Shown here: piece by piece, positions 37,753 through 60,468 of the stretch
Numbering within the stretch: the first letter of the stretch is position 1
How the letters are laid out: every line of letters begins with the position of its first letter
Assembly: GCA_016186995.1 (NCBI GenBank)
Contig: JACPKQ010000010.1
Location: 2,970 to 66,969, forward strand
Direction: 5' to 3'
Origin: Deltaproteobacteria bacterium
GTDB taxonomy: Bacteria; Bdellovibrionota; JACOXK01
Length of the DNA stretch: 64,000 bases
Made by a program: the position numbers and the translations under genes
Notes under the pieces: generated by a model
What the model was told of the DNA's origin: nothing
Database searches by the model: none
Seen by the model: only the letters and a program-made list of their open reading frames with translations

Positions 37753-37960
37753 AAAAATGAGAATAGTAAGTCTATCCTTTTTTGTAAAGCCTCGGCTAAA
37801 TGTATATTCTGCTCCTATTTCCAAAACCCGTAGATTCTATGGGATTTCAAAAACCTTTACCTTGAGGCATTGCCTTGGGTGGTTACGCTATAAAAAGACT
37901 ACTTACACGAGCAAATCTTGCTACAAATCCTTCCCAAGTTTCTAGTTGGAATGTGTACTT

Positions 37961-37987
37961 GTCATTCCAGCGAAGGCTGGAATCCAG
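37961..37987 (+). repeat. REP-like palindromic element copy 1: GTCATTCCAGCGAAGGCTGGAATCCAG
   Basis: 8-bp stem ATTCCAGC/GCTGGAAT with GAAG loop. Identical to the copy at 57961-57987. Confidence 0.85.
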
Positions 37988-38171
37988 AACACAGATACTA
38001 AGATGAAAGTCACATATGTTATTCCTGTACAGGTGGGAAGCCACAGGCGCTAAGTCTGATAGTTAAACGTACTTTATGAGTTGATAAATCTAAATTTAAA
38101 AACTCAACAAATTAAAACTTGTTTTTGTTTAAATGATTTGAGTAAATGTGCAAAAGCACATTGGACAAAAA

Positions 38172-38894
38172 ATGGAACTATATTCGATTCTTACGATAAT
38201 TTTTATTTTTTCTATTATTCAATCAGTGATGGGAGTAGGTCTTCTTGTATTTGGTACCCCAACGCTATTATTGTGTGGATTGTCATTCCACGAAACCTTA
38301 GGAATTGTACTTCCACCATCGATTATTATTAGCTTAATGCAGGTTTGTGAAGCTAAAGTTCCTTCAAAGGACTATTTTAAGTCAGAATTTAATAAATTTT
38401 GCCTCCCTTTTGTATTAGTGGGAATGGCTATTGCATTGACATTGGCACAATCAGTCGATTTTAAATATTTTGTGGGAATCATGCTCATTATCAGCGGAAG
38501 TATAAGGCTTTTTAAACAATTTGAGGCAATCTTAATTAAGGTAATCAAGAAAAACAGAAAACTATATCAAGTGCTAATGGGATTAATTCATGGGTTAACA
38601 AATATGGGGGGCGGATTGCTTGTTCTTTTTTCTTCTTCAATGCATCATAATAAATTGGACATACGATCAGGCGTTGCTTATGGATATTTATTTATGGGGA
38701 CACTTCAATATTTAACTCTCCTTATCTATGATATATCTTTTCTGAAATTTAATATTCTATTTTATATAATAACTGCTACTTTGACCTATGGTGTTTTGGG
38801 AAAACGGTTATTTTATAGAACACATGAAAGTATTTTTCAAAAAATGATTACATCAATAATTTTTCTTTATGGCATAATACTGTTTGTTAAATGA
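38172..38894 (+). CDS. TSUP (TauE/SafE, DUF81) family membrane transporter-like protein
   Basis: Polytopic membrane protein with GVGLLVFGTPTLL and NMGGGLLV glycine-rich motifs. The ORF is open from 38148. The Met at 38172 was chosen as the start. Confidence 0.65.
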   Translation: MELYSILTIIFIFSIIQSVMGVGLLVFGTPTLLLCGLSFHETLGIVLPPSIIISLMQVCEAKVPSKDYFKSEFNKFCLPFVLVGMAIALTLAQSVDFKYFVGIMLIISGSIRLFKQFEAILIKVIKKNRKLYQVLMGLIHGLTNMGGGLLVLFSSSMHHNKLDIRSGVAYGYLFMGTLQYLTLLIYDISFLKFNILFYIITATLTYGVLGKRLFYRTHESIFQKMITSIIFLYGIILFVK

Positions 38895-38995
38895 AAGATA
38901 AATATTAAACGGTGAGTATTACAACATGACCTCGACGTTCTGGGTTCGCTACCTCCGCGGGCGCGATGGTGCACACTTCAATCTAATAAGTGTAC

Positions 38996-39022
38996 CTGGA
39001 TCCCAGCCTTCGCTGGGATGAC
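38996..39022 (-). repeat. REP-like palindromic element copy 3, inverted orientation, with a compensatory base-pair change
   Basis: Reverse complement reads GTCATCCCAGCGAAGGCTGGGATCCAG. Compared with copies 1 and 2, a T to C change in the left arm is matched by an A to G change in the right arm, converting a T-A pair to C-G. Confidence 0.85.
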
Positions 39023-39057
39023 ATGGAATAGATAACAGCATGATTTAGAGCCTGATC

Positions 39058-39921
39058 TTAAGGAATTTGTCTTAAGAGTTTAGTGTTTTTATAAATTTCT
39101 AGAGAGTTAGCGAAAATTTTTATTTTTTCATTAAAAAGTTGTCTTTCTTTTTCAAGGCGTAATATTTCGAGTATTTCTTTGCTCTTTTCCTCCAAGGTAA
39201 TCGTTCCTTCTGGTTTTGTATCAATGAGTTTGAAAACATGATAACCGTACGATGTTTTAATAACAGGAGATACAGCTTCTTTCTCAAGGTTAAAAAGGGG
39301 AACAAACTCTGGTAAAGCCTCAATACGACTCATCCAAGGAAGATACCCTCCATTTTCTGCTTCCGGAGAATGTGAGTATTTATGAGCTCTTGAAGTGAAT
39401 TGATTGGGGCGGTTTTTCAAAAAACTTTGTATTTTTTGTGCTAAAGAGGCATCCTTTACAAAAATATGCTGAAGTTTAATTCTTTGAGGTGCTATTTTTT
39501 CGCTGTAGTGAGAAGAAAAATAGGAATTAATTTCTTCATCAGAAACTTTTATTTTTGATTGTATTTCGTCTTGAATGAATTTTTTAATAAGATCTTCTTG
39601 AGAGAGGGTTTTGTTTAAGTTTGGATAGGTTTTTGAAGCGCTTAAAAAAAGAATTTTTTGATTAATCAAGGGCTTAAGGGCCAAATCTTTGACCAATTTT
39701 CTTGTTTTTGGGTTTTTGAGGCTTGTTTTTGAATATTCTTTTTTGAATTCATAATATTTTTCTAAAAAATCATTAAGATAAATTTTTTCTTCACCCACTT
39801 GAGCAATAATAACTTGTGAAGTGTTTTTGCTTTTAAACTTCCATATAAGAAATAGGGCGAGGGTACTTAGGAAAATGATAAGAATTAAAAGTACTTTTTT
39901 ATTTTTAAAAAATGGAAGCAT
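39058..39921 (-). CDS. PpiC-type (parvulin) peptidyl-prolyl isomerase, membrane-anchored
   Basis: N-terminal TM helix LLILIIFLSTLALFLIW. C-terminal parvulin domain ENGGYLPWMSRIEALPEF...YGYHVFK. The ATG at 39921 lies 1 nt after the stop of the upstream paralogue. The ORF is open to 39945. Confidence 0.75.
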   Translation of the reverse strand: MLPFFKNKKVLLILIIFLSTLALFLIWKFKSKNTSQVIIAQVGEEKIYLNDFLEKYYEFKKEYSKTSLKNPKTRKLVKDLALKPLINQKILFLSASKTYPNLNKTLSQEDLIKKFIQDEIQSKIKVSDEEINSYFSSHYSEKIAPQRIKLQHIFVKDASLAQKIQSFLKNRPNQFTSRAHKYSHSPEAENGGYLPWMSRIEALPEFVPLFNLEKEAVSPVIKTSYGYHVFKLIDTKPEGTITLEEKSKEILEILRLEKERQLFNEKIKIFANSLEIYKNTKLLRQIP

Positions 39922-39922
39922 C

Positions 39923-40768
39923 TTAAGGATTATTAACAATAACAATGTGAGCTTGTTTTTTTAAGTCTTCATAATACTGTTCTTGGGCTTTCATTTGTTT
40001 GTAAGATTGCGCTCTAAATTGAAGATCGCCAAGATATTTTTTTTTTATTTCCTCAAAACTAGGTTTTTCTGTAAGCTTAAAAATGTGAAAACCACGTGAA
40101 GATTTTAAAACTTCTGAGATGTCCCCTACTTTTTTAAGTGCAAAAGCTGTTTGAATAAGTTCTGGAAACAAATCTTCTTTTGTTTTAAAACCAATATCTC
40201 CACCCACATTGGCTGAAGGGCCGTTAGAGTGTCTTTTTGCTAAATCTTCAAAAAGGGTTGGAGTTTTTTTAAGCTCCCCTTTAATATTTTGCGCCTTTGT
40301 TTTGGTTTTATTCCACTCTTCTTGGCTGCCTTCTTTTGGAATAAGAACAATTTGAGAAAATTTTAAAAAGCCCTTTTCTTTGAAAAAAGCTTCTAAATCT
40401 TTTTCTTCAACTTTTATGGCGTTTATTTTTGGGGCCAATTCTTGTCTTACAACGAGATTGTGAAGTGTTGTTCGAAAGGCTTCAATAGCCAAATCGGTTT
40501 CATCCAACTTTAATTTTTGTGCGCGTTGTACGGCAAGTTCGACGTTAATCATGTAATCAAGAAATTCTTTTTTGGAGATTGTTTTATAGGGGCGCCCCTC
40601 TGTTGTTAGTTGATATTGTTTTCTAAATTCATCTTCATAAATAGCAACAGAATTAACTTTAACAAGAACTTTGCCTTCTCTTTTGTGTGAAAACCTAGGG
40701 TGTGCCAACAAAAACGTTTGAGATATGAGAGTAAGAAAAAACATCATTAAAATAGTTCTTTGAAGCAC
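39923..40768 (-). CDS. PpiC-type (parvulin) peptidyl-prolyl isomerase, secreted
   Basis: Signal peptide MLQRTILMMFFLTLISQTFLLA. Parvulin domain GGDIGFKTKEDLFPEL...RGFHIFK. Confidence 0.75.
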   Translation of the reverse strand: MLQRTILMMFFLTLISQTFLLAHPRFSHKREGKVLVKVNSVAIYEDEFRKQYQLTTEGRPYKTISKKEFLDYMINVELAVQRAQKLKLDETDLAIEAFRTTLHNLVVRQELAPKINAIKVEEKDLEAFFKEKGFLKFSQIVLIPKEGSQEEWNKTKTKAQNIKGELKKTPTLFEDLAKRHSNGPSANVGGDIGFKTKEDLFPELIQTAFALKKVGDISEVLKSSRGFHIFKLTEKPSFEEIKKKYLGDLQFRAQSYKQMKAQEQYYEDLKKQAHIVIVNNP

Positions 40769-40785
40769 GACAAAATGCTCTCATA

Positions 40786-43700
40786 TTAAACAATATGCTG
40801 CAATATTTTTTTAAGCTCTTCGTAGATGTTTAGGGGATCTGTGTTTTCTGTATGAATGATAAACTTTTGAGGTGGGAGAATTTTGTATTTTTTAGATTGT
40901 GTTTGAATAAGCTTAAAAACTTTATCAGGTTGAATGACGTCATTTTTAGCAAAAGAAATGCTTAAAATCTGGTCTTGAGAGATCATTGCTTCTACTTTCA
41001 TTTTTTTAAGAAGGTTTTTAATGTTCATAAAATGTAAAAGATTCTCTGTTTCTTCTGGAAGCTTTCCAAATCTATCTTGTAGTTCACGTTTCATGTCTTC
41101 ACTTTCCTCGGGTGTTTCTAAAGAGGCAATTCTTCTATAAAGGGCAAGTCTAAGATGAGAGTCTTTCACATAATAGTTTGGAATGAGAGCTTTGATTTTC
41201 ATTTTAATGTCAGGGTCAATTTCTTCCGTAATTTTTTCGCCCCTCAGTTTTTTAGCTTCGGCTTCAAGAAGACGAGAGTAAAGATCAAGCCCTACAGCAG
41301 AAATGTTTCCTGATTGTTTTGAGCCCAAGAGGTTTCCTGTACCCCTAATTTCAAGATCTTGGGAAGCAATATTAAACCCCGAGCCAAGTTCTGTGTGGTG
41401 TTCAATGGCAGAAAGTCTTTCTTTGGCCTCGGATGTTAGTTTTTGGAGGTGTGGGGTTACAAGATAGCAATAAGCTTGAGAAGAAGATCTCCCAACGCGC
41501 CCTCTTAATTGATAAAGATCTGCTAAACCAAATTTATGAGCCCCATTAATAATAATGGTGTTACAAGAAGAAATATCAAGCCCAGATCCAATGATTGTTG
41601 AGCACACAAGCACATCAAATTCTTTTTTGAGAAATGAAACCATTCTTTTTTCTAAAACCGTTTTGTTCATCTGACCATGTGCACAGAATATTTTTGCTTC
41701 AGGAACCAGAGTTTGAATTTCTTCGGTCATTTTTTCAATGGTTTGAACTCGGTTGTGTAAAAAATAAACTTGGCCCCTCCGCCCTATTTCTTTAAGAATG
41801 GCATCTCGAATGATTTTTTCATTAAAAGGGATGATAAAAGTTCTAACAGATTGTCTGCTTAAAGGGGGAGTTGTCATAATACTTAAATCTCTTAAAGAAG
41901 AAAGTGCCATGTGAAGCGTTCGGGGTATGGGTGTTGCTGAAAGAGTTAAAATATCAATGTTTTCTTGCATTTTTGTAATTTTTTCTTTTTGAAGAACGCC
42001 AAACCTATGTTCTTCATCAATAATAAGAAGCCCTAAATTTTTAAACTGAATATCTTTTGATAAAAGACGGTGAGTGCCAATAACAATTTCAACAGTGCCT
42101 TTTTGAATTTGTTCTTTAACTTGTTTTTGTTTTGATTCAGAAACAAAACGGCTTAAAAGAACAACCTCTACAGGGAAGTTTTTAAGTCTTGATTTAAAAT
42201 TTTCATAATGTTGTTGCGCTAAAAGTGTTGTGGGCACGAGAAAGGCTGCTTGTTTATTATCCTGGACAGCTTTAAATGCCGCCCGCATGGCTATTTCCGT
42301 TTTTCCAAAACCAACATCGCCACAAATAAGCCTATCCATAGGTTTTGGGGAGATCATATCTTGTAATACCTCTTGAATGCACTTTTCTTGATCAGGCGTT
42401 TCTTCATAAGGAAAAGTAGCCTCAAATTCTTCAAAATAAGCATCGGGTTCTGAAAAAGAAAATCCCTCTGAATGAAGTCTTTTGGCATAAAGTGCAATAA
42501 GTTCGCCGGCAATTTTTTTTGCATCTTCTGAAGCCTTTTTCTTTCTGATGTGCCATTTTTGGGTGCCTAGTTTATCAAGCGGCACAGACTGACCTGTTCC
42601 CACATATTTTTGAACAAGATTGAGTTTATGAATAGGGACATAAAGCTTGTCTTTTTCTGCGTATTCAAGTTGTAAAAAGTCGGAGTTCATTCCTCCAATT
42701 TCAAGTTTTTTAAGACCCACAAATCGACCAATGCCATGGCTATCGTGTACGATGTAATCACCATCTTGAAGCTCTTGAAGGTTAAGAAATGATTTTTTTC
42801 TGGGTTGTTTTTGTGCCCAGCCCCGTTTCTTTTTTCCAAAGATTTCTTCTTCAGTGAAATAGAGTGTTTTTTCCTCTTCAAAATAAAAACCCTCGGAAAG
42901 CTCACCACTTTTAATGGTCATATTTTTATTTTCTATATGTGTTGTTTTAAAAATATGATCTAATCTGTGAGTTTGTGTTTCTGAACACACAAAAAATATT
43001 TTTTGGTCTTTTTGGTTGTAGGTGCACATCAGTTCTTGAAGAGTTGGCAAAATATCTTCTTTTTTTTCCCGTATAAGGTTAAATTTTTCTTTCCATATGG
43101 AAAGCGATTTAAAATTAAAGAAATACTCTCCAAGGGAGCTATCCTTAAATGCTTTTAGGGGAACTTTTTTAAAATGATCAATCTCTTTTTTTGTTTGAGA
43201 TTCATCAAGATGAGTAAGTTCTTTAGTAATACCAAGATCTTCCCCACTGTTTTCTATTAAAGGATAAACAAAGGGCTCATCATGAAGCAGTAAACTTTCT
43301 TTTGGAAGATAAGAAAAAACACTTTCTAGATCAAAAAGAAAGGGTAAGAATGTGTCTGTTTCATGAGAAAAAATACCGTTAAGAGGACTTTCTAAAAGTT
43401 CATCCCTTGTTTTTTTCGAGATATTATTGTTATCGGCGTGTATTTTAAATTTTTCTTTAAGGGTTTTTTTAGTTTCAAAGTTTAAAATGGATTCTCTTAA
43501 AGGAATAACGAAAAAATTTTCAATTTCATTTCGAGATGTTTGAGATTCAAAATCGAAATGTTTAATGCTTTCTATGTTATTTCCAAAAAGCTCTATTCGA
43601 ACAGGCTTTTCATGGTGTGGCGGGGAAATATCTATAATGTTTCCTCTGATAGCAAAAAGTCCGTTGCCATCGACTAAAGAAGTTTCTTCATACCCCATTT

Positions 43701-44133
43701 CTTTTATTTTAAGAACAAAATCATCAAGATCAATTTTAGATTCTTTCTCGATAGATAAACAATATTCTGTGAAAAGCTTTAAAGGTGTTGTTTTTTGTGT
43801 GAGTCCTTGAAGTGAGGCAATAATAAAAGAAGGTTGTGTGAAAAGAAGATTAAAAAGAGCAACACTTCGTAAAGAGGCCTCTTCAATAGAAATTTTAGAA
43901 GAACTCCAACCGGGTATATAAATGATGTCATTTTTTGATGAGTGGAAAAATGAAAGATCATTATAAAGGTCTGAAGCCATTTTTTCATCTTGTGTGATGA
44001 TAATAAAAGGCTTTTCAATTGAGTTTTTTAACTTTGAGAGTATGAATGCTTTTTGTGAAGAGGAAAGAACCCCTGCAAGAGAAATTGTTTCTCCACTTTT
44101 AATTTTATGACTCAGTGTTTCAAATGAAGTCAT
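40786..44133 (-). CDS. mfd: transcription-repair coupling factor Mfd
   Basis: 1115 aa. UvrB-homology N-terminus. RNAP-interaction domain. SF2 helicase motifs GDVGFGKTEIAMRAAF, DEEHRFG, LSATPIPRTL and QLRGRVGR. Confidence 0.95.
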   Translation of the reverse strand: MTSFETLSHKIKSGETISLAGVLSSSQKAFILSKLKNSIEKPFIIITQDEKMASDLYNDLSFFHSSKNDIIYIPGWSSSKISIEEASLRSVALFNLLFTQPSFIIASLQGLTQKTTPLKLFTEYCLSIEKESKIDLDDFVLKIKEMGYEETSLVDGNGLFAIRGNIIDISPPHHEKPVRIELFGNNIESIKHFDFESQTSRNEIENFFVIPLRESILNFETKKTLKEKFKIHADNNNISKKTRDELLESPLNGIFSHETDTFLPFLFDLESVFSYLPKESLLLHDEPFVYPLIENSGEDLGITKELTHLDESQTKKEIDHFKKVPLKAFKDSSLGEYFFNFKSLSIWKEKFNLIREKKEDILPTLQELMCTYNQKDQKIFFVCSETQTHRLDHIFKTTHIENKNMTIKSGELSEGFYFEEEKTLYFTEEEIFGKKKRGWAQKQPRKKSFLNLQELQDGDYIVHDSHGIGRFVGLKKLEIGGMNSDFLQLEYAEKDKLYVPIHKLNLVQKYVGTGQSVPLDKLGTQKWHIRKKKASEDAKKIAGELIALYAKRLHSEGFSFSEPDAYFEEFEATFPYEETPDQEKCIQEVLQDMISPKPMDRLICGDVGFGKTEIAMRAAFKAVQDNKQAAFLVPTTLLAQQHYENFKSRLKNFPVEVVLLSRFVSESKQKQVKEQIQKGTVEIVIGTHRLLSKDIQFKNLGLLIIDEEHRFGVLQKEKITKMQENIDILTLSATPIPRTLHMALSSLRDLSIMTTPPLSRQSVRTFIIPFNEKIIRDAILKEIGRRGQVYFLHNRVQTIEKMTEEIQTLVPEAKIFCAHGQMNKTVLEKRMVSFLKKEFDVLVCSTIIGSGLDISSCNTIIINGAHKFGLADLYQLRGRVGRSSSQAYCYLVTPHLQKLTSEAKERLSAIEHHTELGSGFNIASQDLEIRGTGNLLGSKQSGNISAVGLDLYSRLLEAEAKKLRGEKITEEIDPDIKMKIKALIPNYYVKDSHLRLALYRRIASLETPEESEDMKRELQDRFGKLPEETENLLHFMNIKNLLKKMKVEAMISQDQILSISFAKNDVIQPDKVFKLIQTQSKKYKILPPQKFIIHTENTDPLNIYEELKKILQHIV

Positions 44134-44137
44134 TCAT

Positions 44138-45100
44138 TTAAGATCGAGCTATTAAATAGTCTTGGTGTTTTAAAAACCAGTTTACAGTTTTTTGAAGCCC
44201 CTGTTCAAAGGTTGTTTGAGGTTTGAAATCTGTATATTTTTGTATTTGCTCGATACTTGCTTGAGTGTGAAGAACATCTCCAGGTCTAGGGTCTAGGTAT
44301 TTGGGTTTAATATCTTTTTTTATAAGTTTATTTAATTTTTGAACTAACTCGTTCACAGTTGTTCTATTACCACAGGCAGCATTAAAAACCTTTCCATTAG
44401 CTTTGTTACTTTTAAGAACGCTTTCATGTGCTGCGATGACGTTTTCAACAAAAGTAAAGTCACGACTTTGTTTGCCATCTCCATAAATAGGAGGAGATTC
44501 ATTCAAGTTAAGAGATTGAATAAACTTAGGAATAACAACTGCATATTTGTTTTCAAGGCTTTGACGTGGGCCAAAAACATTAAAGTAACGCAAAGAAACA
44601 GTGGGTAAACCAAAGTTTTTAAAGTACATGCGGCAGTAAACCTCAGCATTTAATTTTGAAATAGCGTAAGGAGAAATAGGATCTGGATAGTATTCTTCTT
44701 TAAGTGGGAGGCTTACGTTGTCTCCATAGACAGAACTTGAAGAGGCAAGAACAAACTTTTTGATTTTATTTTTGAGAGCTTCTTCTAAAAGAACAATGGT
44801 TCCAATGACGTTTATTTTTTCATACCCTGTTGGGTCACCAAATGATTTAGGTACGGATCTTAAGGCGGCAAGGTGAAAAACAAAATCGCACCCTTTCATG
44901 GCGCTCGATACAATAGAAGGATCACAAATATCTCCTTCAAAGAAAGAAACATTATTTTTTATGGTTTCAATATTTTTAATGTTGCCCGTCGAAAAATTAT
45001 CAAGAATATTAATGGCATAGCCCTTTTTCAAAAAAGCCTCAGCCATGTTTGATCCTATAAAACCAGCTCCCCCTGTGATAAGAATTTTAGACATATCCAT
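44138..45100 (-). CDS. NAD-dependent nucleotide-sugar epimerase/dehydratase
   Basis: ILITGGAGFIGSN Rossmann motif. YAISK catalytic dyad. GDGKQSRDFTFVENV. Confidence 0.85.
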   Translation of the reverse strand: MDMSKILITGGAGFIGSNMAEAFLKKGYAINILDNFSTGNIKNIETIKNNVSFFEGDICDPSIVSSAMKGCDFVFHLAALRSVPKSFGDPTGYEKINVIGTIVLLEEALKNKIKKFVLASSSSVYGDNVSLPLKEEYYPDPISPYAISKLNAEVYCRMYFKNFGLPTVSLRYFNVFGPRQSLENKYAVVIPKFIQSLNLNESPPIYGDGKQSRDFTFVENVIAAHESVLKSNKANGKVFNAACGNRTTVNELVQKLNKLIKKDIKPKYLDPRPGDVLHTQASIEQIQKYTDFKPQTTFEQGLQKTVNWFLKHQDYLIARS

Positions 45101-45102
45101 TT

Positions 45103-47277: not shown

Positions 47278-47286
47278 TTCATTTTC

Positions 47287-49083: not shown

Positions 49084-49086
49084 AAA

Positions 49087-50478: not shown

Positions 50479-50522
50479 AGGGGAGAAAGATTAACGAGTT
50501 CTTATACTTACGTCAATGTCCT

Positions 50523-50990: not shown

Positions 50991-51083
50991 AGGAGGAAGC
51001 TTTCTCGATCGTCAAGCGCTTTTATTAAAGCATGTTAAAAAGGTGGCCTGGACAATAAAGGCGCTTAAAACTATAGTGTTTGT

Positions 51084-51854
51084 ATGGGGTCCCCACGATT
51101 TAAAGAACTTGATGTCCTTTTAAAAGTGTATAGAAAAAATCCTCAGTCAAAAATTTTTGCGCCCATTGCAGAAATGTATCGAAAAAACGGATTAGTGGAT
51201 GAGGCAAAAGCATTGTGTGAACGAGGACTTTCTTTTCACCCAGATTATGTGGCAGGCAAAATGGCTCATGCAGCGGCTCTTGTGGATAACGGAGAGCTTA
51301 AAGAAGCTCTTTCAGTGCTTCAAGAAGTTATTGTTGAAAGACCACACAGTATTTTAGCCCACACACTTCTTATAAAAATATATACTAAGTTGAGTTTAGA
51401 AGAGAAATTACAGGAAACAGAAGAACATCTTTCAAAAATCAACCCTTATTTTTCAAAATTAATAAAAACAGAAAAACCTCAAAAAACAAAAACCACAACG
51501 AGAACTGCAAGTATTGAAGGCTTTCAAGTTCAATCTATTCATAATATTTTTTCTTCTGCAGAACCCCACGAAAAAGTATTAGCTCCTACACAAGGAGATA
51601 AAAAATATTATACTCTTTCATTAGCGCAAATCTATGAGAAGCAAGGTCATTTTGATAAAGCACTTTATATTTATGAAGATCTTTGTAATCTTTATCCAGA
51701 CAAGGAAGACTTTTTTCATAAAAAAGAAAGTTTAAAACAACAGCTAAAAAAACAAACCATTATTCCAAATCCTCCTTCTGAAGACGAAAGAGCCTCTGAA
51801 AGAGCTGTAGCGCTCCAAAACATACTCAAAAATATTAAGGATGTTAAACCCTGA
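51084..51854 (+). CDS. TPR-repeat protein, function unknown
   Basis: Helical TPR-like repeats in both the N- and C-terminal halves. No signal peptide. 256 aa. Confidence 0.55.
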   Translation: MGSPRFKELDVLLKVYRKNPQSKIFAPIAEMYRKNGLVDEAKALCERGLSFHPDYVAGKMAHAAALVDNGELKEALSVLQEVIVERPHSILAHTLLIKIYTKLSLEEKLQETEEHLSKINPYFSKLIKTEKPQKTKTTTRTASIEGFQVQSIHNIFSSAEPHEKVLAPTQGDKKYYTLSLAQIYEKQGHFDKALYIYEDLCNLYPDKEDFFHKKESLKQQLKKQTIIPNPPSEDERASERAVALQNILKNIKDVKP

Positions 51855-51863
51855 GGTAAGTTT

Positions 51864-52316
51864 GTGATTAAGCTTTTAGTAGTACATGGACCCAATCTCA
51901 ATCTTTTGGGACAAAGACAAAAAGATATTTATGGAGATAAGTCCCTTATTTTTATCAATGAAAAAATAAAAGAAGAGGCTTTAAAAAAAGATGTGCTTCT
52001 TGATATTTTTCAGAGCAACTCTGAAGGAAAAATGATCGATTTTATTCAAGAAAAAAAAGTGGAAAGTAGTGGCATGATTATTAATCCAGGCGGCTATTCA
52101 CACACAAGTGTTGCTCTTTATGATGCACTTTTGGCTTATGAAAAACCAGTTATAGAAGTTCATTTAAGTAATCCACTCAAACGCGAGACCTTTCGGGAGC
52201 CTTTGTTGACTGCGAAAGCGTGTTGTGGTGTTATCCTTGGCTTTGGATGGAGATCCTATATTGTGGGTCTTCATGAGGTTATAGAGCTTATGAGAAAGGC
52301 AAGAAAAAATGGTTAA
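51864..52316 (+). CDS. aroQ: type II 3-dehydroquinate dehydratase
   Basis: [52 protein letters not shown]. Confidence 0.9.
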
Positions 52317-52788
52317 TATTAAACACTTAAAACAGCTTCTCAATCTTCTTCAAGGCACAGACATTTCAGAGCTTGAGATAGAAGAAAACGGAGAAAAAAT
52401 TAAAATAAAAAGAGGTTTTTCAGAAGAGAAACCCTCTGTTTGTTATAGTGAACGCCCCTTGAATATTCAAAAGGAAACGCAAACTCAAAACAGCACTCAA
52501 GAGTTCAAGTTAAATTCAGAGAAAAATGGAGAAATAAAAAAAGATTTAGATATTAAATCTCCGTTTGTGGGTACTTTTTATAGAGCTAACTCTCCCGAGA
52601 ATGCTCCTTATGTTGAAGAAGGTTCTATTGTTAAAAAAGGAGATGTTCTTTGTATTGTAGAAGCTATGAAACTCATGAATGAAATTGAATCAGAGCTTGA
52701 TGGTAAAGTAACTGCTGTTCTTGTGGACAACGGAAATCCTGTAGAATATGGGCAAAGTTTGTTTCATGTTCGACCCCTTGAAAACTAA
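52309..52788 (+). CDS. accB: biotin carboxyl carrier protein of acetyl-CoA carboxylase
   Basis: Biotinylation motif [15 protein letters not shown]. aroQ-accB-accC synteny as in E. coli. Confidence 0.9.
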
Positions 52789-54131
52789 TGTATAAAAAAA
52801 TTCTTATTGCGAATCGTGGCGAAATTGCACTTCGGGTTATTAGAGCCTGTCGGCAGTTAGGCATTAAAACAGTTGCTATTCATTCTGTGGCTGATCAAGC
52901 CTCTTTGCATGTTAAATTAGCTGATGAAAGTGTGTGTGTAGGGCCTGCCGAGGTTTCTAAAAGTTATCTTCATGTTCCTTCAATTCTTTCTGCTGCTGAG
53001 GTAACAGGGAGCGATGCTATTCATCCAGGCTATGGTTTTTTGGCTGAAAACCATGAGTTTGCAGAAAGGTGTGAACAATGTGGAGTTCGTTTTATTGGGC
53101 CCACACCTAAGAATATAGAGCTTATGGGAAACAAGATTAAAGCAAAGCAGTTGGTAGAGGAACTTGATATTCCCACTATTCCCGGAAGCACTACCAAGAT
53201 GAAATCTGAAAAGGAAGCTGTCTTGGTTGCAAATGAACTAGGCTACCCCATTCTCCTTAAGGCAGCGCTGGGTGGTGGTGGGCGTGGTATGAGAGTGATT
53301 CATAATGAAAACGAACTTAAAAAATCTTTGTCACTAGTTCGAAATGAAGTTCTTGCTCATTTTGGAAATCCGGACATTTATATTGAGAAATATCTTGAAG
53401 GCCCTCGTCACATAGAAGTTCAAATTGTGGCTGACCAACATGGGACTGTTCTTCATTTGGGAGAACGCGAGTGTTCTTTACAAAGAAATTATCAAAAAAT
53501 TTTAGAAGAAGCCCCTTGTGCTTTTTTAGATCAAGGAATAAGAGAAAAAATTTTGAGAGACGCTGTGAGAATTGCTTCTACCATTCAATATAAAAATGTT
53601 GGAACTATTGAATTTTTGGTTTCAGGACAAGATTACTATTTTATTGAAATGAACACCCGTATCCAAGTAGAACACCCGGTTACAGAAATGGTAACGGGCA
53701 TTGATCTTATAAAAACACAGATTCAGGTTTCTTTGGGCGAAGCGTTGTCTTGGAAGCAAGAAGATATCCATTTTAATGGACACTCTATGGAGTGTCGTAT
53801 TAATGCTGAAGATCCGGAAACAATGATGCCATTTCCAGGAGAAATAAAAGACTATCATGTTCCAGGGGGCATTGGAGTAAGAGTTGATGCAGCTTTATAT
53901 GATGGGTGTTCTATTTTACCTTATTATGATTCTTTAATAGCCAAACTCATTGTTCATGGGGATAATAGGGCTGAAGTAATTAACAAGATGAAACATGCTT
54001 TGAATGAGTATATTATTGGAGGTATTAAAACAAACATCCCTCTATTTAAAAAAATACTGGAAAACCCAAGTTTTATTGGTGGAGAAGTGAACACCTCCTT
54101 TTTAAAAAGGTTTTTACAAAAAACAACCTAA
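52788..54131 (+). CDS. accC: acetyl-CoA carboxylase biotin carboxylase subunit
   Basis: [24 protein letters not shown]-grasp core. 447 aa. Confidence 0.95.
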   Translation: MYKKILIANRGEIALRVIRACRQLGIKTVAIHSVADQASLHVKLADESVCVGPAEVSKSYLHVPSILSAAEVTGSDAIHPGYGFLAENHEFAERCEQCGVRFIGPTPKNIELMGNKIKAKQLVEELDIPTIPGSTTKMKSEKEAVLVANELGYPILLKAALGGGGRGMRVIHNENELKKSLSLVRNEVLAHFGNPDIYIEKYLEGPRHIEVQIVADQHGTVLHLGERECSLQRNYQKILEEAPCAFLDQGIREKILRDAVRIASTIQYKNVGTIEFLVSGQDYYFIEMNTRIQVEHPVTEMVTGIDLIKTQIQVSLGEALSWKQEDIHFNGHSMECRINAEDPETMMPFPGEIKDYHVPGGIGVRVDAALYDGCSILPYYDSLIAKLIVHGDNRAEVINKMKHALNEYIIGGIKTNIPLFKKILENPSFIGGEVNTSFLKRFLQKTT

Positions 54132-54143
54132 TTTTTTACTGTT

Positions 54144-57100
54144 ATGAAAAGAATCGTTAGCCTTTTTTTAGTGATTCTTATTTTATCTTTTTCTAGTTTT
54201 GTTTATTTAACAAAACAGCCTTTTTTCCAGCAGTATTTGAAAAGACTTGTTTATGAATATGCCGAAAAAGAGTTTAAAAGAAAGATAGAATTTAAAACCC
54301 TTTCCATAGGGTTTTTGGGCCCTACCATTTATTCTGATGAGGTTTCTGTTTCTAAAAAAAACGAGAGTTTGTTTTTAAAAAGTATAAAGGCGCGAGTGAG
54401 TATTTTAGCCCTTTTAAAGGGGCAATTTAAAATTTCTTCTATTTATGGATATCAAGGAAAATTTCAATCTGTATTAGAGAATAACAAAGGTCAAGGAAAA
54501 CCCCCAGATATTTTCGGTAGTTTTTTAATTCCAAAATTTGAATTTGAAAAAATAGATTTTGAAATAAAATCTCAAAATAGTGATGAAATTTTTATTTCAA
54601 ACGCTTCTATCGAAGGAAATCAAAAATCTGAAGTTGTTTTCCTCAAATTAAATTTTCCCAAAATAAATTTTAAGTATAAAAATCTAGAAAGAACTCATCT
54701 CTCCCTCAATGTGAGGGGAGATGTTTCCCCAAAACGGATTTATTTAAAGAATTTTTTGTTAAAAGAGAATAATAACAAACTGAACTTAAGTGGATATTAT
54801 CATTTTAATAAGAAACAAAAGCTTGATATTCAGTTTGATTCAAATTTCGATGTTAAAAGTCTTCACGATATTCTACCCCAAGTTAAAATCTTGAGTGGGC
54901 ATGGAAGATCTGTGGGAAGTCTTAAGGGGATATTAGATGCCCCTGTTCTTCAGTTTTCATCGCAGTTTGAAAGTATTTTTGTAGGCCCCCAAGAACTTAA
55001 AGAAGCTCAATTTTCTTTTTTGTTAAAGGATAAAGTAATTCAAATTACAAATTTAGAATCCTATAAAACAGTTCGGGGGGGTGTAGAAATAAAACTGAGC
55101 GATCCTTTAAATGTCAGGGGAAGCCTTCACCTTTCCCAAACCCCCCTAGAAAATATTTATTATCTTAAGGAATTAGGTATTTTAGGTAAGGCAACCGGTC
55201 CTGTTAAATTTGTGATTGATGGAAATCAAAAATACCCTGCTTTTTTAGAGAGTGATCTTTTGGTGGAAGGTTTTCAAAGCCCAGTGGGGCAGGTTGTTGA
55301 TATTCAAAACTTTCAACTCAGTGCCAAGTATTCTATTGGTGGAGAAGGGCTGTTAGTAGAAAGCGGAAAGATAAACCGTGGTAAAACTGTATGGAAGATC
55401 AAAAAATCTCAAGTTGGTTTTGGGGCGCGCCCACTTCATTTTGAAATTACCTCGGAAAATTATAGATGGGCAGATTTCCCCCTTTCTCCTATTAAAGAAA
55501 GTTTTGATGCCCAGGGTCATGTGCGCGTTTTATTTGAAGGAAAAACCAAAGATCTAAAAATAGAAAGTAGTTTTGATCTTAATAATATTAAGTTTTTAGG
55601 ACTTTCCTGTGAGGGACTTCAAAGCAAGATTTCTTTTAATAAGTCTATTCTTACAATTCTTGAAGCAAAAGCATTTCAAGAAGATTCTTTTTTAAGCCTT
55701 AATGGGCAATATGATTTTATAGAAAAAGAATTTAAAAATACAAAGATTCATTCAAACAAAGTTTCTGTAAAAGATTTTATCCAGGCGGGTGTAGCTATTC
55801 CTTTTTCACTAGAGGGGCTTTTTGAAGTTGATCTTAATGTTCAAGGGTCTCTTACAAGAAAAAATATATTTTTGGAAGGAGAAATTAAAGGTAGAAACAC
55901 AAGAATTTTAAAGGAAAGTTTTGAGAAGGTGTCTATTTCTTTTTCTCAAAAAAATGGGAAAACTTTTTTAAAGAAATCTCAGTTTTCAAAAGGCGGAGGT
56001 GTTTTAAATATAAGTGGTGTTATTTTTGAAAACAATGAGTGTTTGTTAGATTTTAAAACAGAAAACTTTGTTTCTCAGTCTTTCGATTTTTTATCTCAGT
56101 ATCCTTTTTTCATTTCTGCCCGCGTTGATTTTTTGGGAAGCTTAAGAGGAAACATTTTTAATCCCAAAGGAAAGGCAAAACTTCATTTTTCAAAATCAAA
56201 TCTTAATGGAGAGGCTCTTAAAAACTCAACTTACGAAATGAGTTTAGAGAATAAAAGTCTCAATGTAAAAGGAGAAGTTTTTGAAGGAGAGGCCTCTTTA
56301 ACATCTCAAATAAAACTTGATGCCCCCTATTTTTATAAGATACATTTACAAGGGAAAAACTTCAATTTTAAACCCTTTTACGGGCTTATCAGGGGTTTTG
56401 TAAGTGAAGGAGTGGGAATTATTGACGGAAGTATTTTAGCAGAGGGATCTTTGGAATCCCCATTGGTAAATACTTTAGAAGTTAAAATCAATAAATTTAA
56501 AATCAACCTCCCCGGATATTTTTTAGAATCTAAAACCCCTTTTCAAGTTTCTTATAAAAACAACGAGTTAGAGGTGGGTAAGGTTTATTTTTTTGGAACG
56601 GAAACAGAGTTTGTTTTTTCTGGCAAGAAAGATAAAAATGGAACGCTTGATTTTGACGGCAAAGGAGCCCTAAACATTGCCTTTCTCCCCCTCTTTGTAA
56701 AAGAAGTAGAAAGGGGAAGTGGACTTTTAAATGTTTCTTTTTCTCTTAAAGGATCTGCAGAAAACCCGCTTCTCTTGGGGTATGTGAGAACAGAAAATAG
56801 TTCTATAAGGTCAAGAACACTGAAACAAGGCATCAGTAATTTAAATTTAGATATAAAACTTCATAACCAAGAAATTATTTTTGAAAAAGCTATCTTTGAT
56901 CTGCCGAGAGGTAAGGCAAAGCTGGGTGGCAATGTTCTTCTTTCTAAAATAAGGGAACCAGAATTTAACATTTCTCTAGAATTAGAAAAAGGTCGGATTT
57001 CTTTTTTTGAAGATCTTTTTTCAACAATGAGTGGAACTTTATTTTTAGAAGGAAAATCGCCTTTTCTTATAAGAGGAGACCTAGAAGTTTCAAAAATAGA

Positions 57101-57950
57101 ATATGAAAGATATTTGGATTGGAAAAGCAATATTATACCACTTACAAAAAAAGGAGAAATTAAAGTTTCAGGGGAAAATAAAGAACCCACGTTTAATTTT
57201 GATTTAAAAATAAAAAGTATTAGTGATCTTGAAGTTGAAAATAACCTTTTCCAACTTCAAGGAAGTGGTGTTTTTGAAATTAAGGGAAATAATTTAAACC
57301 CCGTTATCTTGGGGCATTTTGATACACAGAAAGGAAAAATCTTTTTTAAAGATCATACGTTTCAACTTGGGGAAAGCCAGCTTATTTTAAAAGACAAGAC
57401 AAAAATAAACCCGTTTTTCTCATTTACTCTTTCGGGTGTGATAAGGGATTATCGCATCACTATTATTGGTCAGGGAGATTTAGTGAAATATAATATTCAA
57501 CTTCAGTCAGATCCACCCTTGGCCCAAACAGATATTGTTTCTCTTCTTACACTTGGGGTTTTAACCGCCGAAATTCAGGGTGAAGAAGCATTAGGTACAA
57601 CCTCTTTTGAAGCTGCGACGCTTATTTTAAGTCAGTTTCAGGAAAAAATAGCAGTGGTTGCTAGAAAGACACTGGGGGTTCAGTTTAGACTTGCTTCTTC
57701 TTATTCAGATACAAAACATGCTGTTCGTCCGAGGTTGTTTCTTTCGAAAGATCTTTCCGATCGTTTAGAATTGTCATTTTCATCAACGTTAGATAGAGAG
57801 GGTATTTTTGAAGACAAACTTTTTAACTTAGAATGGCGTTTAAATAGAAGGCTTTCTCTTTTAGGGGTGTGGGAAGATGAAGGAAGTCAGGAAACAAATC
57901 AAGAATCTATTTTTGGATTAGATGTTAAATATAAATATGAATTTGAATAA
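54144..57950 (+). CDS. tamB: TamB-like translocation and assembly module protein (AsmA-like/DUF490)
   Basis: 1268 aa. N-terminal signal anchor. Long beta-rich body. C-terminal DUF490-like segment DPPLAQTDIVSLLTLGVLTAE. Directly upstream of bamA, overlapping it. Confidence 0.7.
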   Translation: MKRIVSLFLVILILSFSSFVYLTKQPFFQQYLKRLVYEYAEKEFKRKIEFKTLSIGFLGPTIYSDEVSVSKKNESLFLKSIKARVSILALLKGQFKISSIYGYQGKFQSVLENNKGQGKPPDIFGSFLIPKFEFEKIDFEIKSQNSDEIFISNASIEGNQKSEVVFLKLNFPKINFKYKNLERTHLSLNVRGDVSPKRIYLKNFLLKENNNKLNLSGYYHFNKKQKLDIQFDSNFDVKSLHDILPQVKILSGHGRSVGSLKGILDAPVLQFSSQFESIFVGPQELKEAQFSFLLKDKVIQITNLESYKTVRGGVEIKLSDPLNVRGSLHLSQTPLENIYYLKELGILGKATGPVKFVIDGNQKYPAFLESDLLVEGFQSPVGQVVDIQNFQLSAKYSIGGEGLLVESGKINRGKTVWKIKKSQVGFGARPLHFEITSENYRWADFPLSPIKESFDAQGHVRVLFEGKTKDLKIESSFDLNNIKFLGLSCEGLQSKISFNKSILTILEAKAFQEDSFLSLNGQYDFIEKEFKNTKIHSNKVSVKDFIQAGVAIPFSLEGLFEVDLNVQGSLTRKNIFLEGEIKGRNTRILKESFEKVSISFSQKNGKTFLKKSQFSKGGGVLNISGVIFENNECLLDFKTENFVSQSFDFLSQYPFFISARVDFLGSLRGNIFNPKGKAKLHFSKSNLNGEALKNSTYEMSLENKSLNVKGEVFEGEASLTSQIKLDAPYFYKIHLQGKNFNFKPFYGLIRGFVSEGVGIIDGSILAEGSLESPLVNTLEVKINKFKINLPGYFLESKTPFQVSYKNNELEVGKVYFFGTETEFVFSGKKDKNGTLDFDGKGALNIAFLPLFVKEVERGSGLLNVSFSLKGSAENPLLLGYVRTENSSIRSRTLKQGISNLNLDIKLHNQEIIFEKAIFDLPRGKAKLGGNVLLSKIREPEFNISLELEKGRISFFEDLFSTMSGTLFLEGKSPFLIRGDLEVSKIEYERYLDWKSNIIPLTKKGEIKVSGENKEPTFNFDLKIKSISDLEVENNLFQLQGSGVFEIKGNNLNPVILGHFDTQKGKIFFKDHTFQLGESQLILKDKTKINPFFSFTLSGVIRDYRITIIGQGDLVKYNIQLQSDPPLAQTDIVSLLTLGVLTAEIQGEEALGTTSFEAATLILSQFQEKIAVVARKTLGVQFRLASSYSDTKHAVRPRLFLSKDLSDRLELSFSSTLDREGIFEDKLFNLEWRLNRRLSLLGVWEDEGSQETNQESIFGLDVKYKYEFE

Positions 57951-60468
57951 AAAAAACAATGTCATTCCAGCGAAGGCTGGAATCCAGTTTTTAAAAATTT
58001 TTATCTTTTTTATTTCTTTGCAGGTTTTTTCTGAGCCACAAGAACTTGTCAAAATAAATAAAATTAACTTTGAAGGGCTTCATGAATTTTCTGAAGTTAT
58101 TACCCTCAAAAAAATAAACTTGAGTGAGTATTCTTATGTTGAAAGAGAAGAGATTGAAAAATATGGTAATAAAATTAAAGAGCTTTATAAAAGAGAGGGT
58201 TTCTTAAAAGCAGTAGTAATCCCTCTTCTTAAAGAAGAGGGGAAAAATGAATTTAATCTTATTTTTAATATTCAAGAAAAGAACCGCAGTATTGTTCAAA
58301 GTATTTTTGTTGAAACAAATAATAAAAAAGAATTAGAAAGCCTTCTTTCTCTTGTTCAAGTAAAAAAAGGCGATTTTTTTATCTACTTTGAGTTAGAAAA
58401 AAATCTAGACATTTTTAAAAATGCACTTTACGAGAAGGGTTATGAAGAAATTGAGGATTTAAGTTTTGGGTATATTCAATCTGATAAAGATCCTTATGTT
58501 GATGTTAAATTTATTGTTAAAACAGGCCCTAAGTATATTTATCATTTTGAAGATAATGAGACTTTTAAAAACAAAGAAATTTTAAATTTAAAAAAAGAGC
58601 AAAATTGGACGCCTGAAGATTTTGCTGACAAAATTGTCGAGTTTTACAAAAAGTCAGGGTTTCATTTTAGCAAAGTCTATTTTTCTCTTAAAGAAGATAT
58701 ATCTCAAAAAGAAAAAAATCTGTTCTATAAAATTGAAGAAGGTCCTCTTGTTACAATTGAAGAGGTTTTTTTTCACGGGGCCATTTTTAGAAACTCGCTC
58801 TTTTACAAAGAGTATTTATTTGAAAAATCTAAGGATTCTCTATCTGTAAAAGCCTTTTATAGAAAATCATTTGAATCTGGATTGCCTGTTGTTATCGAAT
58901 ATTTAGGAAACCAAGGATTTTTAAAGGCTCGTATCGATCGTACCCAGTATGATTTTTCTGGAGACAATAAAAAAGTTAAAATTCATGTTTATCTCTATGA
59001 AGGCCATCAAGTTAAAATCTCTAAAATACAGATTCAAGGTATTAAAAAACGTCCCTTAAGTGAAATTATTGATGTTTTGGGTGTAAAAGAAGGAGATGCA
59101 TTTAATTTATCTTTTTTGGAAAGGTCTTTAACAAGGCTTAAAAGTTATTATCGTGAATTGGGGTTTTACTACTTTTCTTTGACAAGTGAAGAAAAAATAA
59201 TTTTTGCAACCCCAACAAATATCATTCTTGATTTACATTTTAGAGAAGGTCCTCTTGTTACAGTTCGCGAGATCGAAGTAAAAAACAACCACAGAACTAA
59301 ATCAAAAGTTATTAGAAGAGAACTCACCTTTAAAAAAGAAGATATTTTGAGATCTTCTTCTCTTTTTGAATCAGAAAATAAACTTTTACGCTTGGGGCTT
59401 TTTCAATTTGTAAATATTTTTGTTGAAAATGAAGGGACTCAAGACGCATCTAAAAATATTGTTGTTGAGGTTCAAGAAAGAAAATCTGGACTTTTTGAAT
59501 TTGGCGGTGGAATTAAAACAGAGGAAGGTTTTCAGGCTTTTTCAGGCATTTTTTATAAAAACTTAGGTGGGTGGAACAGAACCCTTTCTTTCCACGGAGA
59601 TTTTAATAGAAAAATTGAGAACCCACAGTTTATTGAAAGAGAAATCAATTTTGGAGCTCAAGAACCTTATCTTTTTGGAGTTCCCTTTATTATGAGATTG
59701 AATGCCCTTAATAAGAAAAAAGATAAAAGAGCTTACGATGTGCATACTTGGGAGGGTATTGTTAGTTTTGAATCTAAAGTGTGGGATACTTTTCGAATGC
59801 TTTTTGAATACCATTTTTCTTTTAGAGATATTTTTAATACACTTAATCCTGCTGATGAAGAAAAAAAATTACTTGGAGTTATAAAACCCGCATTTTACTT
59901 GGACTATAGAAATAACGCTCTTAACCCCTCTAGGGGCACTTTCCATTCTTTTGGGATAGAGTATGCAAGCCCTCTTCTTGGATCAGATGACAAAAATCAT
60001 TTTTATAAATTACTTGCTTCAACAAACTGGTATCTTCCCTTTGATCAAGAAGAAAATGTTGTTGTTGCTTTAGCTTTAAGGGGTGGTTTTGCCCAAAGTC
60101 TTTTAACGGGTTCGGGTATTCCTGCTGACCAAAGATTTTATTTAGGAGGGAGATCCACTATTAGAGGTTTTGAAGAAGATGAGCTGGGTGTTATTAGTAC
60201 GACAAAAGAAATTACACAAACCTATTTTTTAAATTATAAAACTGAATTAAGATTTCCTCTATTTTGGAAAATAGGGGGAGCGATCTTTGTTGATGGGGGT
60301 AATGTTGCTTTTGGAGGACTTCGAGCGTTTTCTTCAAGAGAGGCTGCTGGTCTTGGAATTCGATATTTATCGCCTGTTGGACCTCTTTCTTTTGATGCTG
60401 GGTATAAATTAGATCGACAGCCCGGTGAATCAGCCTATCAAATCCATTTTTCAATTGGTGTTTTTTAA
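57937..60468 (+). CDS. bamA: outer membrane protein assembly factor BamA (Omp85)
   Basis: POTRA repeats. C-terminal beta-barrel ending HFSIGVF with a terminal aromatic residue. The start ATG at 57937 overlaps the last 14 nt of tamB, or alternatively 57922. The N-region of the signal peptide is encoded by the REP-like element. Confidence 0.9.
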   Translation: MNLNKKNNVIPAKAGIQFLKIFIFFISLQVFSEPQELVKINKINFEGLHEFSEVITLKKINLSEYSYVEREEIEKYGNKIKELYKREGFLKAVVIPLLKEEGKNEFNLIFNIQEKNRSIVQSIFVETNNKKELESLLSLVQVKKGDFFIYFELEKNLDIFKNALYEKGYEEIEDLSFGYIQSDKDPYVDVKFIVKTGPKYIYHFEDNETFKNKEILNLKKEQNWTPEDFADKIVEFYKKSGFHFSKVYFSLKEDISQKEKNLFYKIEEGPLVTIEEVFFHGAIFRNSLFYKEYLFEKSKDSLSVKAFYRKSFESGLPVVIEYLGNQGFLKARIDRTQYDFSGDNKKVKIHVYLYEGHQVKISKIQIQGIKKRPLSEIIDVLGVKEGDAFNLSFLERSLTRLKSYYRELGFYYFSLTSEEKIIFATPTNIILDLHFREGPLVTVREIEVKNNHRTKSKVIRRELTFKKEDILRSSSLFESENKLLRLGLFQFVNIFVENEGTQDASKNIVVEVQERKSGLFEFGGGIKTEEGFQAFSGIFYKNLGGWNRTLSFHGDFNRKIENPQFIEREINFGAQEPYLFGVPFIMRLNALNKKKDKRAYDVHTWEGIVSFESKVWDTFRMLFEYHFSFRDIFNTLNPADEEKKLLGVIKPAFYLDYRNNALNPSRGTFHSFGIEYASPLLGSDDKNHFYKLLASTNWYLPFDQEENVVVALALRGGFAQSLLTGSGIPADQRFYLGGRSTIRGFEEDELGVISTTKEITQTYFLNYKTELRFPLFWKIGGAIFVDGGNVAFGGLRAFSSREAAGLGIRYLSPVGPLSFDAGYKLDRQPGESAYQIHFSIGVF
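57961..57987 (+). repeat. REP-like palindromic element copy 2, located inside the bamA 5' coding region
   Basis: GTCATTCCAGCGAAGGCTGGAATCCAG, identical to copy 1. It translates in the bamA frame as VIPAKAGIQ. Confidence 0.85.

Follow-up and report, generated by a model that had tools for sequence, protein, structure and literature searches.

The 64,000-nucleotide (nt) stretch of DNA analysed here, referred to as the window, comes from an uncultured 'Deltaproteobacteria' metagenome-assembled genome (MAG) and holds three copies of a short hairpin that belong to a published family of repetitive extragenic palindromes (REPs), CGTC-1. The window is an origin region (rnpA, yidC, jag, mnmE, mnmG, rsmG, parAB, the atp operon, dnaA, dnaN and gyrBA) that also carries uvrA, pdxA, surA, two ppiC-like genes, mfd, uvrD, glmSU, ssb, accBC, tamB, a BamA/TamA-family gene and rsmB. 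Pfam scans were run on the window's open reading frames (ORFs) of at least 110 aa, minus three overlapping annotated genes and those for PdxA, phosphomannomutase and Mfd, which were otherwise identified. The scans returned housekeeping families only, with no transposase, REP-associated tyrosine transposase (RAYT), Y1 family or recombinase, in agreement with an earlier reading of the letters alone (hereafter the sequence-only reading), which had seen no transposase or RAYT gene; ORF 288-752 had no Pfam match.

Exact matching found the hairpin 27-mer GTCATTCCAGCGAAGGCTGGAATCCAG at 37961-37987 and 57961-57987 on the forward strand, and 2-mismatch matching found the variant GTCATCCCAGCGAAGGCTGGGATCCAG at 38996-39022 on the reverse strand, the three places where the sequence-only reading had put a 27-bp element; at up to three mismatches, 100 dinucleotide-preserving shuffles of the window gave 0 matches. 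Because a T precedes GTC in all three copies, the full shared unit, TGTCATTCCAGCGAAGGCTGGAATCCAG, is 28 nt long rather than 27 (Table 1). Copy 2 differs from copies 1 and 3 at two positions, the two sides of stem pair 3, where T-A is replaced by C-G; the 8-bp stem and GAAG loop are preserved despite this, as had been noticed from the letters. Both stems, ATTCCAGC/GCTGGAAT and ATCCCAGC/GCTGGGAT, are Watson-Crick paired at 8/8 positions, and each copy folds into the 8-bp stem and GAAG loop better than its shuffles, both as RNA (z -2.5 to -4.5) and as DNA (z about -3.7). Rfam gave no match at the gathering score in the window and, with the E threshold relaxed to 10, nothing relevant near copies 1 and 2; ARAGORN found no tRNA or transfer-messenger RNA (tmRNA) in the window. 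An identity of the hairpins as tRNA, tmRNA or a known RNA family was therefore rejected.

The starts of copies 1 and 3, 37960 and 57960, are exactly 20,000 nt apart, a distance that could suggest an assembly or benchmark artefact; local duplication and chance similarity were considered as well. That spacing is a coincidence, since the copies are confirmed independently: copies 1 and 2 are also present in a separate Logan assembly (contig L121), and the source MAG's NCBI protein P0171 includes the residues that copy 3 encodes. The flanks of the copies are unrelated and the repeat ends at 28 nt, which, together with the absence of shuffle matches, leaves an artefactual or accidental origin barely credible.

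Besides the three intact copies, a probable decayed fourth copy, TGTTATTCCTGTACAGGTGGGAAGCCAC, begins 29 nt after copy 1. Shuffles contain ~1.2 sites per window with up to 10 mismatches to the 28-mer, and this site is called a decayed copy mainly because it neighbours copy 1 at a distance typical of dimers. Successive copies in the window are separated by 29 nt, ~1 kb and ~19 kb, and the density is three intact copies plus one probable decayed copy in 64 kb. Two further candidates were rejected. A reverse-strand 28-mer at 60864-60891, TATCCTCCCAGCAAAGGCGGGGATCTAT, has 8 mismatches and lies inside the conserved RsmB methyltransferase domain (residues ~318-327); it is probably a chance resemblance, although it may be an old intragenic REP relic. 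The 'partial core' AGCGAAGGCTG of the sequence-only reading, placed there at 14995-15005, lies at 14996-15006 and is a bare 11-mer; as it lacks a stem partner and is embedded in a structured element of another kind, we attribute it to chance.

Table 1. Hairpin copies and the genes beside them (window coordinates).
Feature	Position	Strand	Basis or remark
SurA-like gene	36844..37824	-	
CGTC-1 REP copy 1: TGTC/ATTCCAGC/GAAG/GCTGGAAT/CCAG	37960..37987	+	exact match, folds, architecture scan
Probable decayed REP copy	38017..38044	+	19/28 identical, 9 mismatches, same orientation as copy 1
TauE/TSUP transporter gene (context, not repeat)	38173..38894	+	Pfam; strand opposite to neighbours
CGTC-1 REP copy 2: TGTC/ATCCCAGC/GAAG/GCTGGGAT/CCAG	38996..39023	-	sequence match, folds, architecture scan
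PpiC/SurA_N gene	39058..39945	-	
BamA/TamA-family coding sequence	57937..60468		Omp85/POTRA
CGTC-1 REP copy 3, identical to copy 1	57960..57987	+	exact match, translation, NCBI protein P0171

CGTC-tagged REPs were defined by Di Nocera, De Gregorio and Rocco (BMC Genomics 2013, PMC3733652) as carrying the tag CGTC, often TGTC, with CCTC accepted, and an 8- or 9-bp stem that opens with A and T at positions 1-2. Within that definition, CGTC-1 units have an 8-bp stem, a 4-nt loop of a few major types and a tail of approximately CCA, and occur as singletons and inverted dimers, mostly in spacers and sometimes in frame within genes (PMC3733652). The passages quoted here from that paper report CGTC repeats from five phyla and no dedicated transposase or mobilising enzyme. 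All three window copies have the tag TGTC, an 8-bp stem with A-T and T-A at pairs 1 and 2, the 4-nt loop GAAG and the tail CCAG; no dedicated transposase flanks them in the window, and the count of three intact copies and one probable decayed copy comes from 64 kb of the genome only. Of 433 sites examined elsewhere, 277 carry the tag CGTC and 147 carry TGTC, the commonest loop is GAAG (217, followed by GAAA with 75 and GCAG with 65) and the tail is CCAG in 340. In tag, stem, loop, tail, dimers, an in-frame copy and the lack of an adjacent transposase, the window repeat and the published family are alike, with no structural difference; the window density, at three intact copies per 64 kb, is low. 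The hairpins are therefore already known: they are ordinary members of a published pan-bacterial repeat family, and for that reason neither new nor lineage-specific. The host lineage of the window is not among the taxa quoted here from PMC3733652.

CGTC-1 corresponds to dRS3 in Neisseria and to RPE-6, one of the Rickettsia palindromic elements (RPEs), in Rickettsia conorii (PMC3733652), so that the comparison with Rickettsia RPEs in the sequence-only reading goes beyond analogy. In Neisseria, dRS3 repeats and the arrays known as neisserial intergenic mosaic elements (NIMEs) have been described (Parkhill 2000; Bentley 2007, PMC1797815; Schoen 2009, PMC3898611). The dRS3 element, ATTCCC(N8)GGGAAT, is present in about 650-725 copies per genome and bounds the 50-150-bp RS units of the NIME arrays; Nf1/MDA prophages integrate at one subtype, ATTCCCRCCTRCGCGGRAAK. 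With the sequences ATTCCA...TGGAAT and ATCCCA...TGGGAT, the window copies do not match the literal dRS3 pattern, because stem position 6 is A-T rather than C-G and copy 2 also has C-G at position 3; these are paired changes inside one family. Unlike the Neisseria genomes, the window has no arrays or RS units, nothing approaching ~700 copies per genome, no Nf-type prophage and no IS110 gene nearby. With RPE-6 the window shares the family and, in copy 3, an in-frame position in a protein gene, as is seen for many RPEs, whereas classic RPE-1 type insertions are longer than the window insert, which consists of one 27-nt unit within a signal peptide, and the host is not Rickettsia.

Two other classes of small repeat were compared. 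The GTAG REPs and REPINs (REP doublets) of E. coli and Pseudomonas resemble the window hairpins in being short hairpins with a 4-nt unpaired tag, in forming inverted dimers, in lying in spacers downstream of genes and in their presumed recognition as single-stranded DNA; the window tag, however, is (C/T)GTC rather than GTAG, no RAYT accompanies it in published work or in the window, and the sequence types are shared across phyla rather than species-specific. Correia elements and miniature inverted-repeat transposable elements (MITEs), to which the sequence-only reading had likened the hairpin, are also small, repeated and non-coding, but measure 100-200 bp with terminal inverted repeats and target-site duplications, whereas the window repeat is only a 28-nt hairpin. 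A larger MITE around the hairpins was sought and rejected: only ~28-40 nt matches any other locus, and there are no terminal inverted repeats or border duplications, so the MITE analogy does not hold.

The reverse strand of the 27-mer translates to WIPAFAGMT, presumably a common artefact peptide in bacterial annotations; a search of the literature for the peptide motif IPAFAGMT and similar strings found no papers. In a scan of viral contigs with the hairpin pattern TCATNCCNGCNNNNGCNGGNATCC, in which two stem positions were left free, at least 120 stretches matched, with 157 matches among those listed. Within these listed matches, both free pairs were Watson-Crick in 143 of 157, the loop followed G-[A/C]-A-[G/A], and columns outside the pattern were also kept (TCAT is preceded by G in 144/157, and ATCC is followed by A in 137/157 and then by G in 97/157). 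The commonest forms among them were TCATTCCCGCGCAGGCGGGAATCC and its ...GAAG... counterpart; the former, the commonest viral-contig variant, includes the reverse complement of the Nf1-target subtype of dRS3. The family consensus is YGTC-ATTCCCGC-GMAG-GCGGGAAT-CCAG, from which the window unit departs only by paired stem changes.

A second scan, for the exact 27-mer with Y/R allowed at pair 3 only, covered one representative genome per GTDB species. At least 120 stretches were found, and those listed span more than 10 phylum-level groups with a locus GC content of 34-72%. Hosts among the matches listed are Dehalococcoidia (including a 2.8-Mb chromosome with several copies); the candidate phyla radiation (CPR) groups Saccharibacteria, Parcubacteria and Peregrinibacteria; Cloacimonadota, KSB1, Elusimicrobiota, Planctomycetota and Anaerohalosphaeraceae; Sulfurovum, Rickettsiales and several proteobacterial classes; and Dyella, Rhodanobacter, Luteimonas, Sphingomonas, Azospirillum, Methyloligellaceae and various Betaproteobacteria. 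The loci listed share the hairpin with the window and nothing beyond it. With at least 120 stretches of many phyla carrying the exact 27-mer, the hairpin is not restricted to its three sites in the window, and the lineage-specific family proposed in the sequence-only reading is refuted. Apart from Proteobacteria, the host groups listed fall outside the five phyla quoted here from PMC3733652. Some of these non-Proteobacteria assignments come from short MAG contigs and may be binning errors; several are on contigs of 80 kb-2.8 Mb.

Pairing in the stem was assessed by searching ~2 Mb of loci with only tag, loop and tail fixed (GTC-N8-G.A[AG]-N8-CCA). Among the 418 sites obtained, 334 had 8/8 Watson-Crick pairs, 36 had 7/8, and 48 had six or fewer, most of the last group being at chance level. 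For the 160 sites selected by neither of the search patterns above, the corresponding numbers were 82 with 8/8 and 31 with 7/8 pairs. An alignment was built from 92 distinct sequences of this kind plus the two window types, and 95.5% of its stem cells pair, compared with 19-50% in slid controls, a figure mildly favoured by the fact that sites were kept only if they had at least five pairs. Changes on both sides were observed in 7 of the 8 stem pairs, and the alignment contains 147 double-change cells against 40.6 +/- 10.5 in shuffles (0/500 shuffles reach 147). Stem pairing is therefore maintained by covariation at the level of the family, and disrupting changes are far rarer than compensatory ones, which bears out the structural constraint that the sequence-only reading had seen in this REP-like stem-loop. 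Mismatches in the stems were G.T in 17 cases and A.C in 20, with no strand asymmetry and hence no sign of one RNA strand as the selected form.

These data also bear on the possibility that the hairpin is a lineage-specific REP/MITE family born in the source genome, one of whose copies has newly acquired a compensatory double mutation. The two differences in copy 2 are indeed exactly paired, and copies 1 and 3 are identical, as recent copies would be. Pair 3, however, is the most polymorphic stem pair after pair 6 (U-A in 43 and C-G in 40 sequences of the alignment); the stem types ATTCCAGC and ATCCCAGC are both among the commonest elsewhere, and the 27-mer, counting its two stem variants together, was present in at least 120 stretches from many phyla. 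Because both types are common, widespread and often combined in heterodimers, copy 2 need not be a compensated copy 1, and the presence of two sequence types that already existed is a better reading of the 'compensatory substitution' than a local double mutation. Thus, the paired nature of the difference stands, while a mutation within the source genome is not supported. Only ~28 nt is repeated, which speaks against a MITE, and an origin of the family in this lineage is very improbable.

Outside the window, CGTC-1 units often occur in close pairs, with the CCAG tails facing each other in 87 of 136 pairs and a modal gap of about 30 nt; heterodimers of ATTCCAGC and ATCCCAGC are frequent. Tails-facing dimers with ~30-nt spacing fit the published organisation of CGTC dimers. 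Dense NIME-like arrays of 8-12 CGTC-1 units per locus were observed in viral-catalogue and genome contigs (L031, 88-1369; L111, 2370-3035; L219, 3479-3971). The array in L219 consists of four tandem dimers with a 136-nt period and near-identical 29-nt spacers, which suggests amplification of complete dimers rather than of single hairpins. Viral contigs also carry a second CGTC-tagged palindrome family, TGTCATTGCGAG...GCAATC, which is widespread and has an interrupted stem; it was present in at least 120 of them (L251-L324 and others), and stands alongside CGTC-1 units in viral contigs L003, L009, L017, L018, L026 and L044.

In the window, copy 1 lies in the divergent spacer between the SurA-like gene and the TauE/TSUP transporter gene, and copy 2 in the convergent spacer between TauE and the PpiC/SurA_N gene, 34 nt after the PpiC stop codon and with its tag first in the direction of PpiC transcription. 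Copy 3 starts 10 nt after the stop codon (57950) of the gene upstream, identified by Pfam as TamB, and its 27 nt from GTC to CAG supply nine in-frame codons, VIPAKAGIQ, to the BamA/TamA-family coding sequence. The description of all copies as intergenic or at gene 5' ends is thus right for copies 1 and 2, and right for copy 3 as to the 5' end, but copy 3 is within the coding sequence. NCBI protein P0171 (843 aa) begins MNLNKKNN-VIPAKAGIQ-FLKIFIFFISLQVFS-EPQ, with the start MNLNKKNNVIPAKAGIQFLK, so that the nine residues separate the n-region of the signal peptide, MNLNKKNN, from its h-region, FLKIFIFFISLQVFS. Without the 27 nt the sequence would read ...AAAAAACAAT/TTTTTAAAAATT and give a canonical signal peptide, whereas translation from any in-frame start beyond copy 3 would lose the signal peptide. 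By its position, copy 3 parallels the published intragenic CGTC and RPE insertions.

The placement of copies 2 and 3 shortly after stop codons, both with the tag first along transcription, raises the possibility that the hairpin serves the host as an RNA element, either an intrinsic terminator or attenuator or a stabiliser of mRNA 3' ends, and is kept for that function. Copy 3 is followed by a T5 run, with CCAG between stem and run, and scores weakly as terminator-like on both strands in a simple scan. REPs of other genomes that lie up to 120 nt past the end of a long ORF favour the same tag-first, sense orientation (53 vs 29, p=0.011), and the sense copies crowd 0-12 nt after stop codons. Such a bias fits the published view that many REPs, which are mostly downstream of ORFs, are plausibly transcribed. 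Among singleton REPs alone, however, the bias is not significant (34 vs 20, p=0.08). Copy 1 occupies a divergent promoter region, neither copy 1 nor copy 2 is followed by a T-run or passes the terminator scan, and termination at copy 3, inside the next coding sequence, would cut off BamA/TamA expression. Terminators also need neither a conserved tag, loop and tail nor an identical sequence across phyla, and the stem mismatches show no strand excess of the G.U type. Hence, we regard maintenance for a host-serving RNA function as unlikely, while acknowledging that the sense bias speaks for it. REPs of E. coli form hairpins at mRNA 3' ends and affect translation when the REP is within ~15 nt of the stop codon.

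Copies 1 and 2 bracket TauE, with their CCAG tails pointing inward 1008 nt apart. In the closest relatives identified, with 51% identity in SurA (contigs L243 and L244), the two PpiC-like genes and SurA are contiguous and co-directional, without TauE. TauE relatives of the source MAG are found in Bacteriovoracaceae and Halobacteriovorax; homologs with 75-78% identity lie in other neighbourhoods, and DNA homology with them stops at the borders of the coding sequence. The PpiC-SurA spacer of L243 (ENA contig k141_2344518, 2086-2122) holds a palindrome of the second CGTC-tagged family described above, which has been translated as an artefact N-terminus, MNFHLSLRGVEGDAAIS.

This arrangement would be expected if the hairpins were targets of a site-specific recombinase, such as an IS110 (bridge-RNA) enzyme, and copies 1 and 2 flanked an inserted TauE segment. 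In the literature, Nf1/MDA prophages integrate at dRS3 through a transposase of the IS110 family, a part for dRS3 in inserting and deleting genes has been proposed, and IS110 elements commonly target REPs. The adjacency of PpiC and SurA in L243 and L244, the distribution of TauE homologs, the tails-facing orientation of two stem types known as heterodimer partners elsewhere and the CGTC-tagged palindrome in the orthologous spacer of L243 all point in the same direction. On the other hand, no recombinase was found in the window by the Pfam scans or enriched near REP loci, and no target duplication is present at the TauE locus. At gene-scale distances, tails-facing pairs (8) are not enriched over heads-facing (6) or same-orientation pairs (16). 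With 12 window spacers of at least 60 nt, two REPs would be expected in adjacent spacers roughly 10-20% of the time, and the relatives are distant enough that loss of TauE in them is equally possible. Recombinase targeting is accordingly improbable as an account of the hairpins. We give still less credence to the specific proposal that copies 1 and 2 are the ATTCCAGC and ATCCCAGC halves of one heterodimer, split by, or mediating, a 1-kb TauE insertion into the conserved PpiC-SurA operon. TauE as a REP-bounded mobile cassette was rejected, as its flanks are not shared with the 75-78% homologs and tails-facing pairs are not enriched.

Taken together, the window hairpins are canonical CGTC-1 REPs, and they are most likely non-autonomous selfish palindromic elements, a reading to which we assign a probability of roughly 80%. 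The factor that propagates them would recognise the folded hairpin together with its asymmetric tag and tail, and such recognition is proposed as the reason why the stem is kept paired, why tag, loop and tail are near-invariant, and why the same types recur across phyla. A conserved asymmetric tag and tail combined with a freely covarying stem suggests that the form recognised is a folded single strand, bound by a sequence- and structure-specific enzyme acting in trans. Mobility by this route would be analogous to the action of RAYTs on GTAG REPs, which is established for the E. coli RAYT. In a compact genome, copies would persist only where they are tolerated, here two in the spacers around TauE and one as an in-frame 9-codon insert. 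Secondary effects in cis are plausible for individual copies, which may act as RNA hairpins at mRNA 3' ends (copy 2 after PpiC, copy 3 after TamB), influence translation or serve as targets for recombination.

Several points weigh against a selfish, mobile nature. The 64 kb of genome yielded neither an empty site nor a target duplication nor a mobilising enzyme, and the nearest relatives sampled, on 6.5-kb and 12.7-kb contigs, are without a CGTC-1 copy. The near-identity across phyla could reflect a conserved host factor instead of mobility, and the strand symmetry of mismatches neither supports nor excludes a role at the RNA level. When the 5,184 ORFs of 240 REP loci were clustered all against all, no transposase cluster emerged; the clusters near these loci were phage head/tail modules resembling those of gene transfer agents (GTAs) and an ABC ATPase, and the search for a mobilising enzyme by guilt by association was therefore set aside.

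Other structures were observed in the window. The rsmG-mnmG spacer (14755-15105) is unusually long at 351 nt and contains an element of ~232 nt, at 14848-15079, closed by 30-nt inverted arms. It folds at -100 kcal/mol on the forward strand (z -8.8) and -82 on the reverse strand (z -7.0), with 0/200 shuffles as good, includes a perfect 16-bp hairpin, is single-copy in the window and, up to an E of 10, matches no Rfam family. A structured RNA of a new kind and a MITE whose terminal inverted repeats are long are both conceivable identities. The replication origin is probably the dnaA-dnaN spacer (22715-23317). Cumulative GC skew reaches its minimum close to 22 kb, and the two copies of a perfect 40-nt direct repeat, TAATTTTAATAAGTTAGGCAGGCTATAAACATTTTCACAG, at 22891-22930 and 23206-23245, enclose several TCCACA/TGTGGATA motifs resembling DnaA boxes. 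Beside copy 2, at 38925-38995, a 50-nt stretch of ~65% GC, GACCTCGACGTTCTGGGTTCGCTACCTCCGCGGGCGCGATGGTGCAC, interrupts a region of 32% GC; after it comes a hairpin with 8 bp, GTGCACAC...GTGTAC, directly adjoining the copy 2 tail. The GC-rich part (38925-38975) was rejected as a tRNA fragment or a second repeat, being neither a tRNA nor an Rfam match and occurring only in contigs of the same genome.

For annotators, three odd hairpins and an artefact-looking peptide, VIPAKAGIQ, are explained as copies of a known repeat. To the CGTC-1 family, the window contributes one more host lineage, an in-frame insertion in a signal peptide and one possible case of gene insertion. If copies 1 and 2 were a split dimer, CGTC/dRS3-type repeats would serve as gene-insertion sites outside Neisseria, which would hint at a recombinase that recognises a pan-bacterial hairpin. 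Across the family, the same 28-nt unit, with one tag, loop and tail and only paired changes in its stem, is found from CPR bacteria to Proteobacteria.

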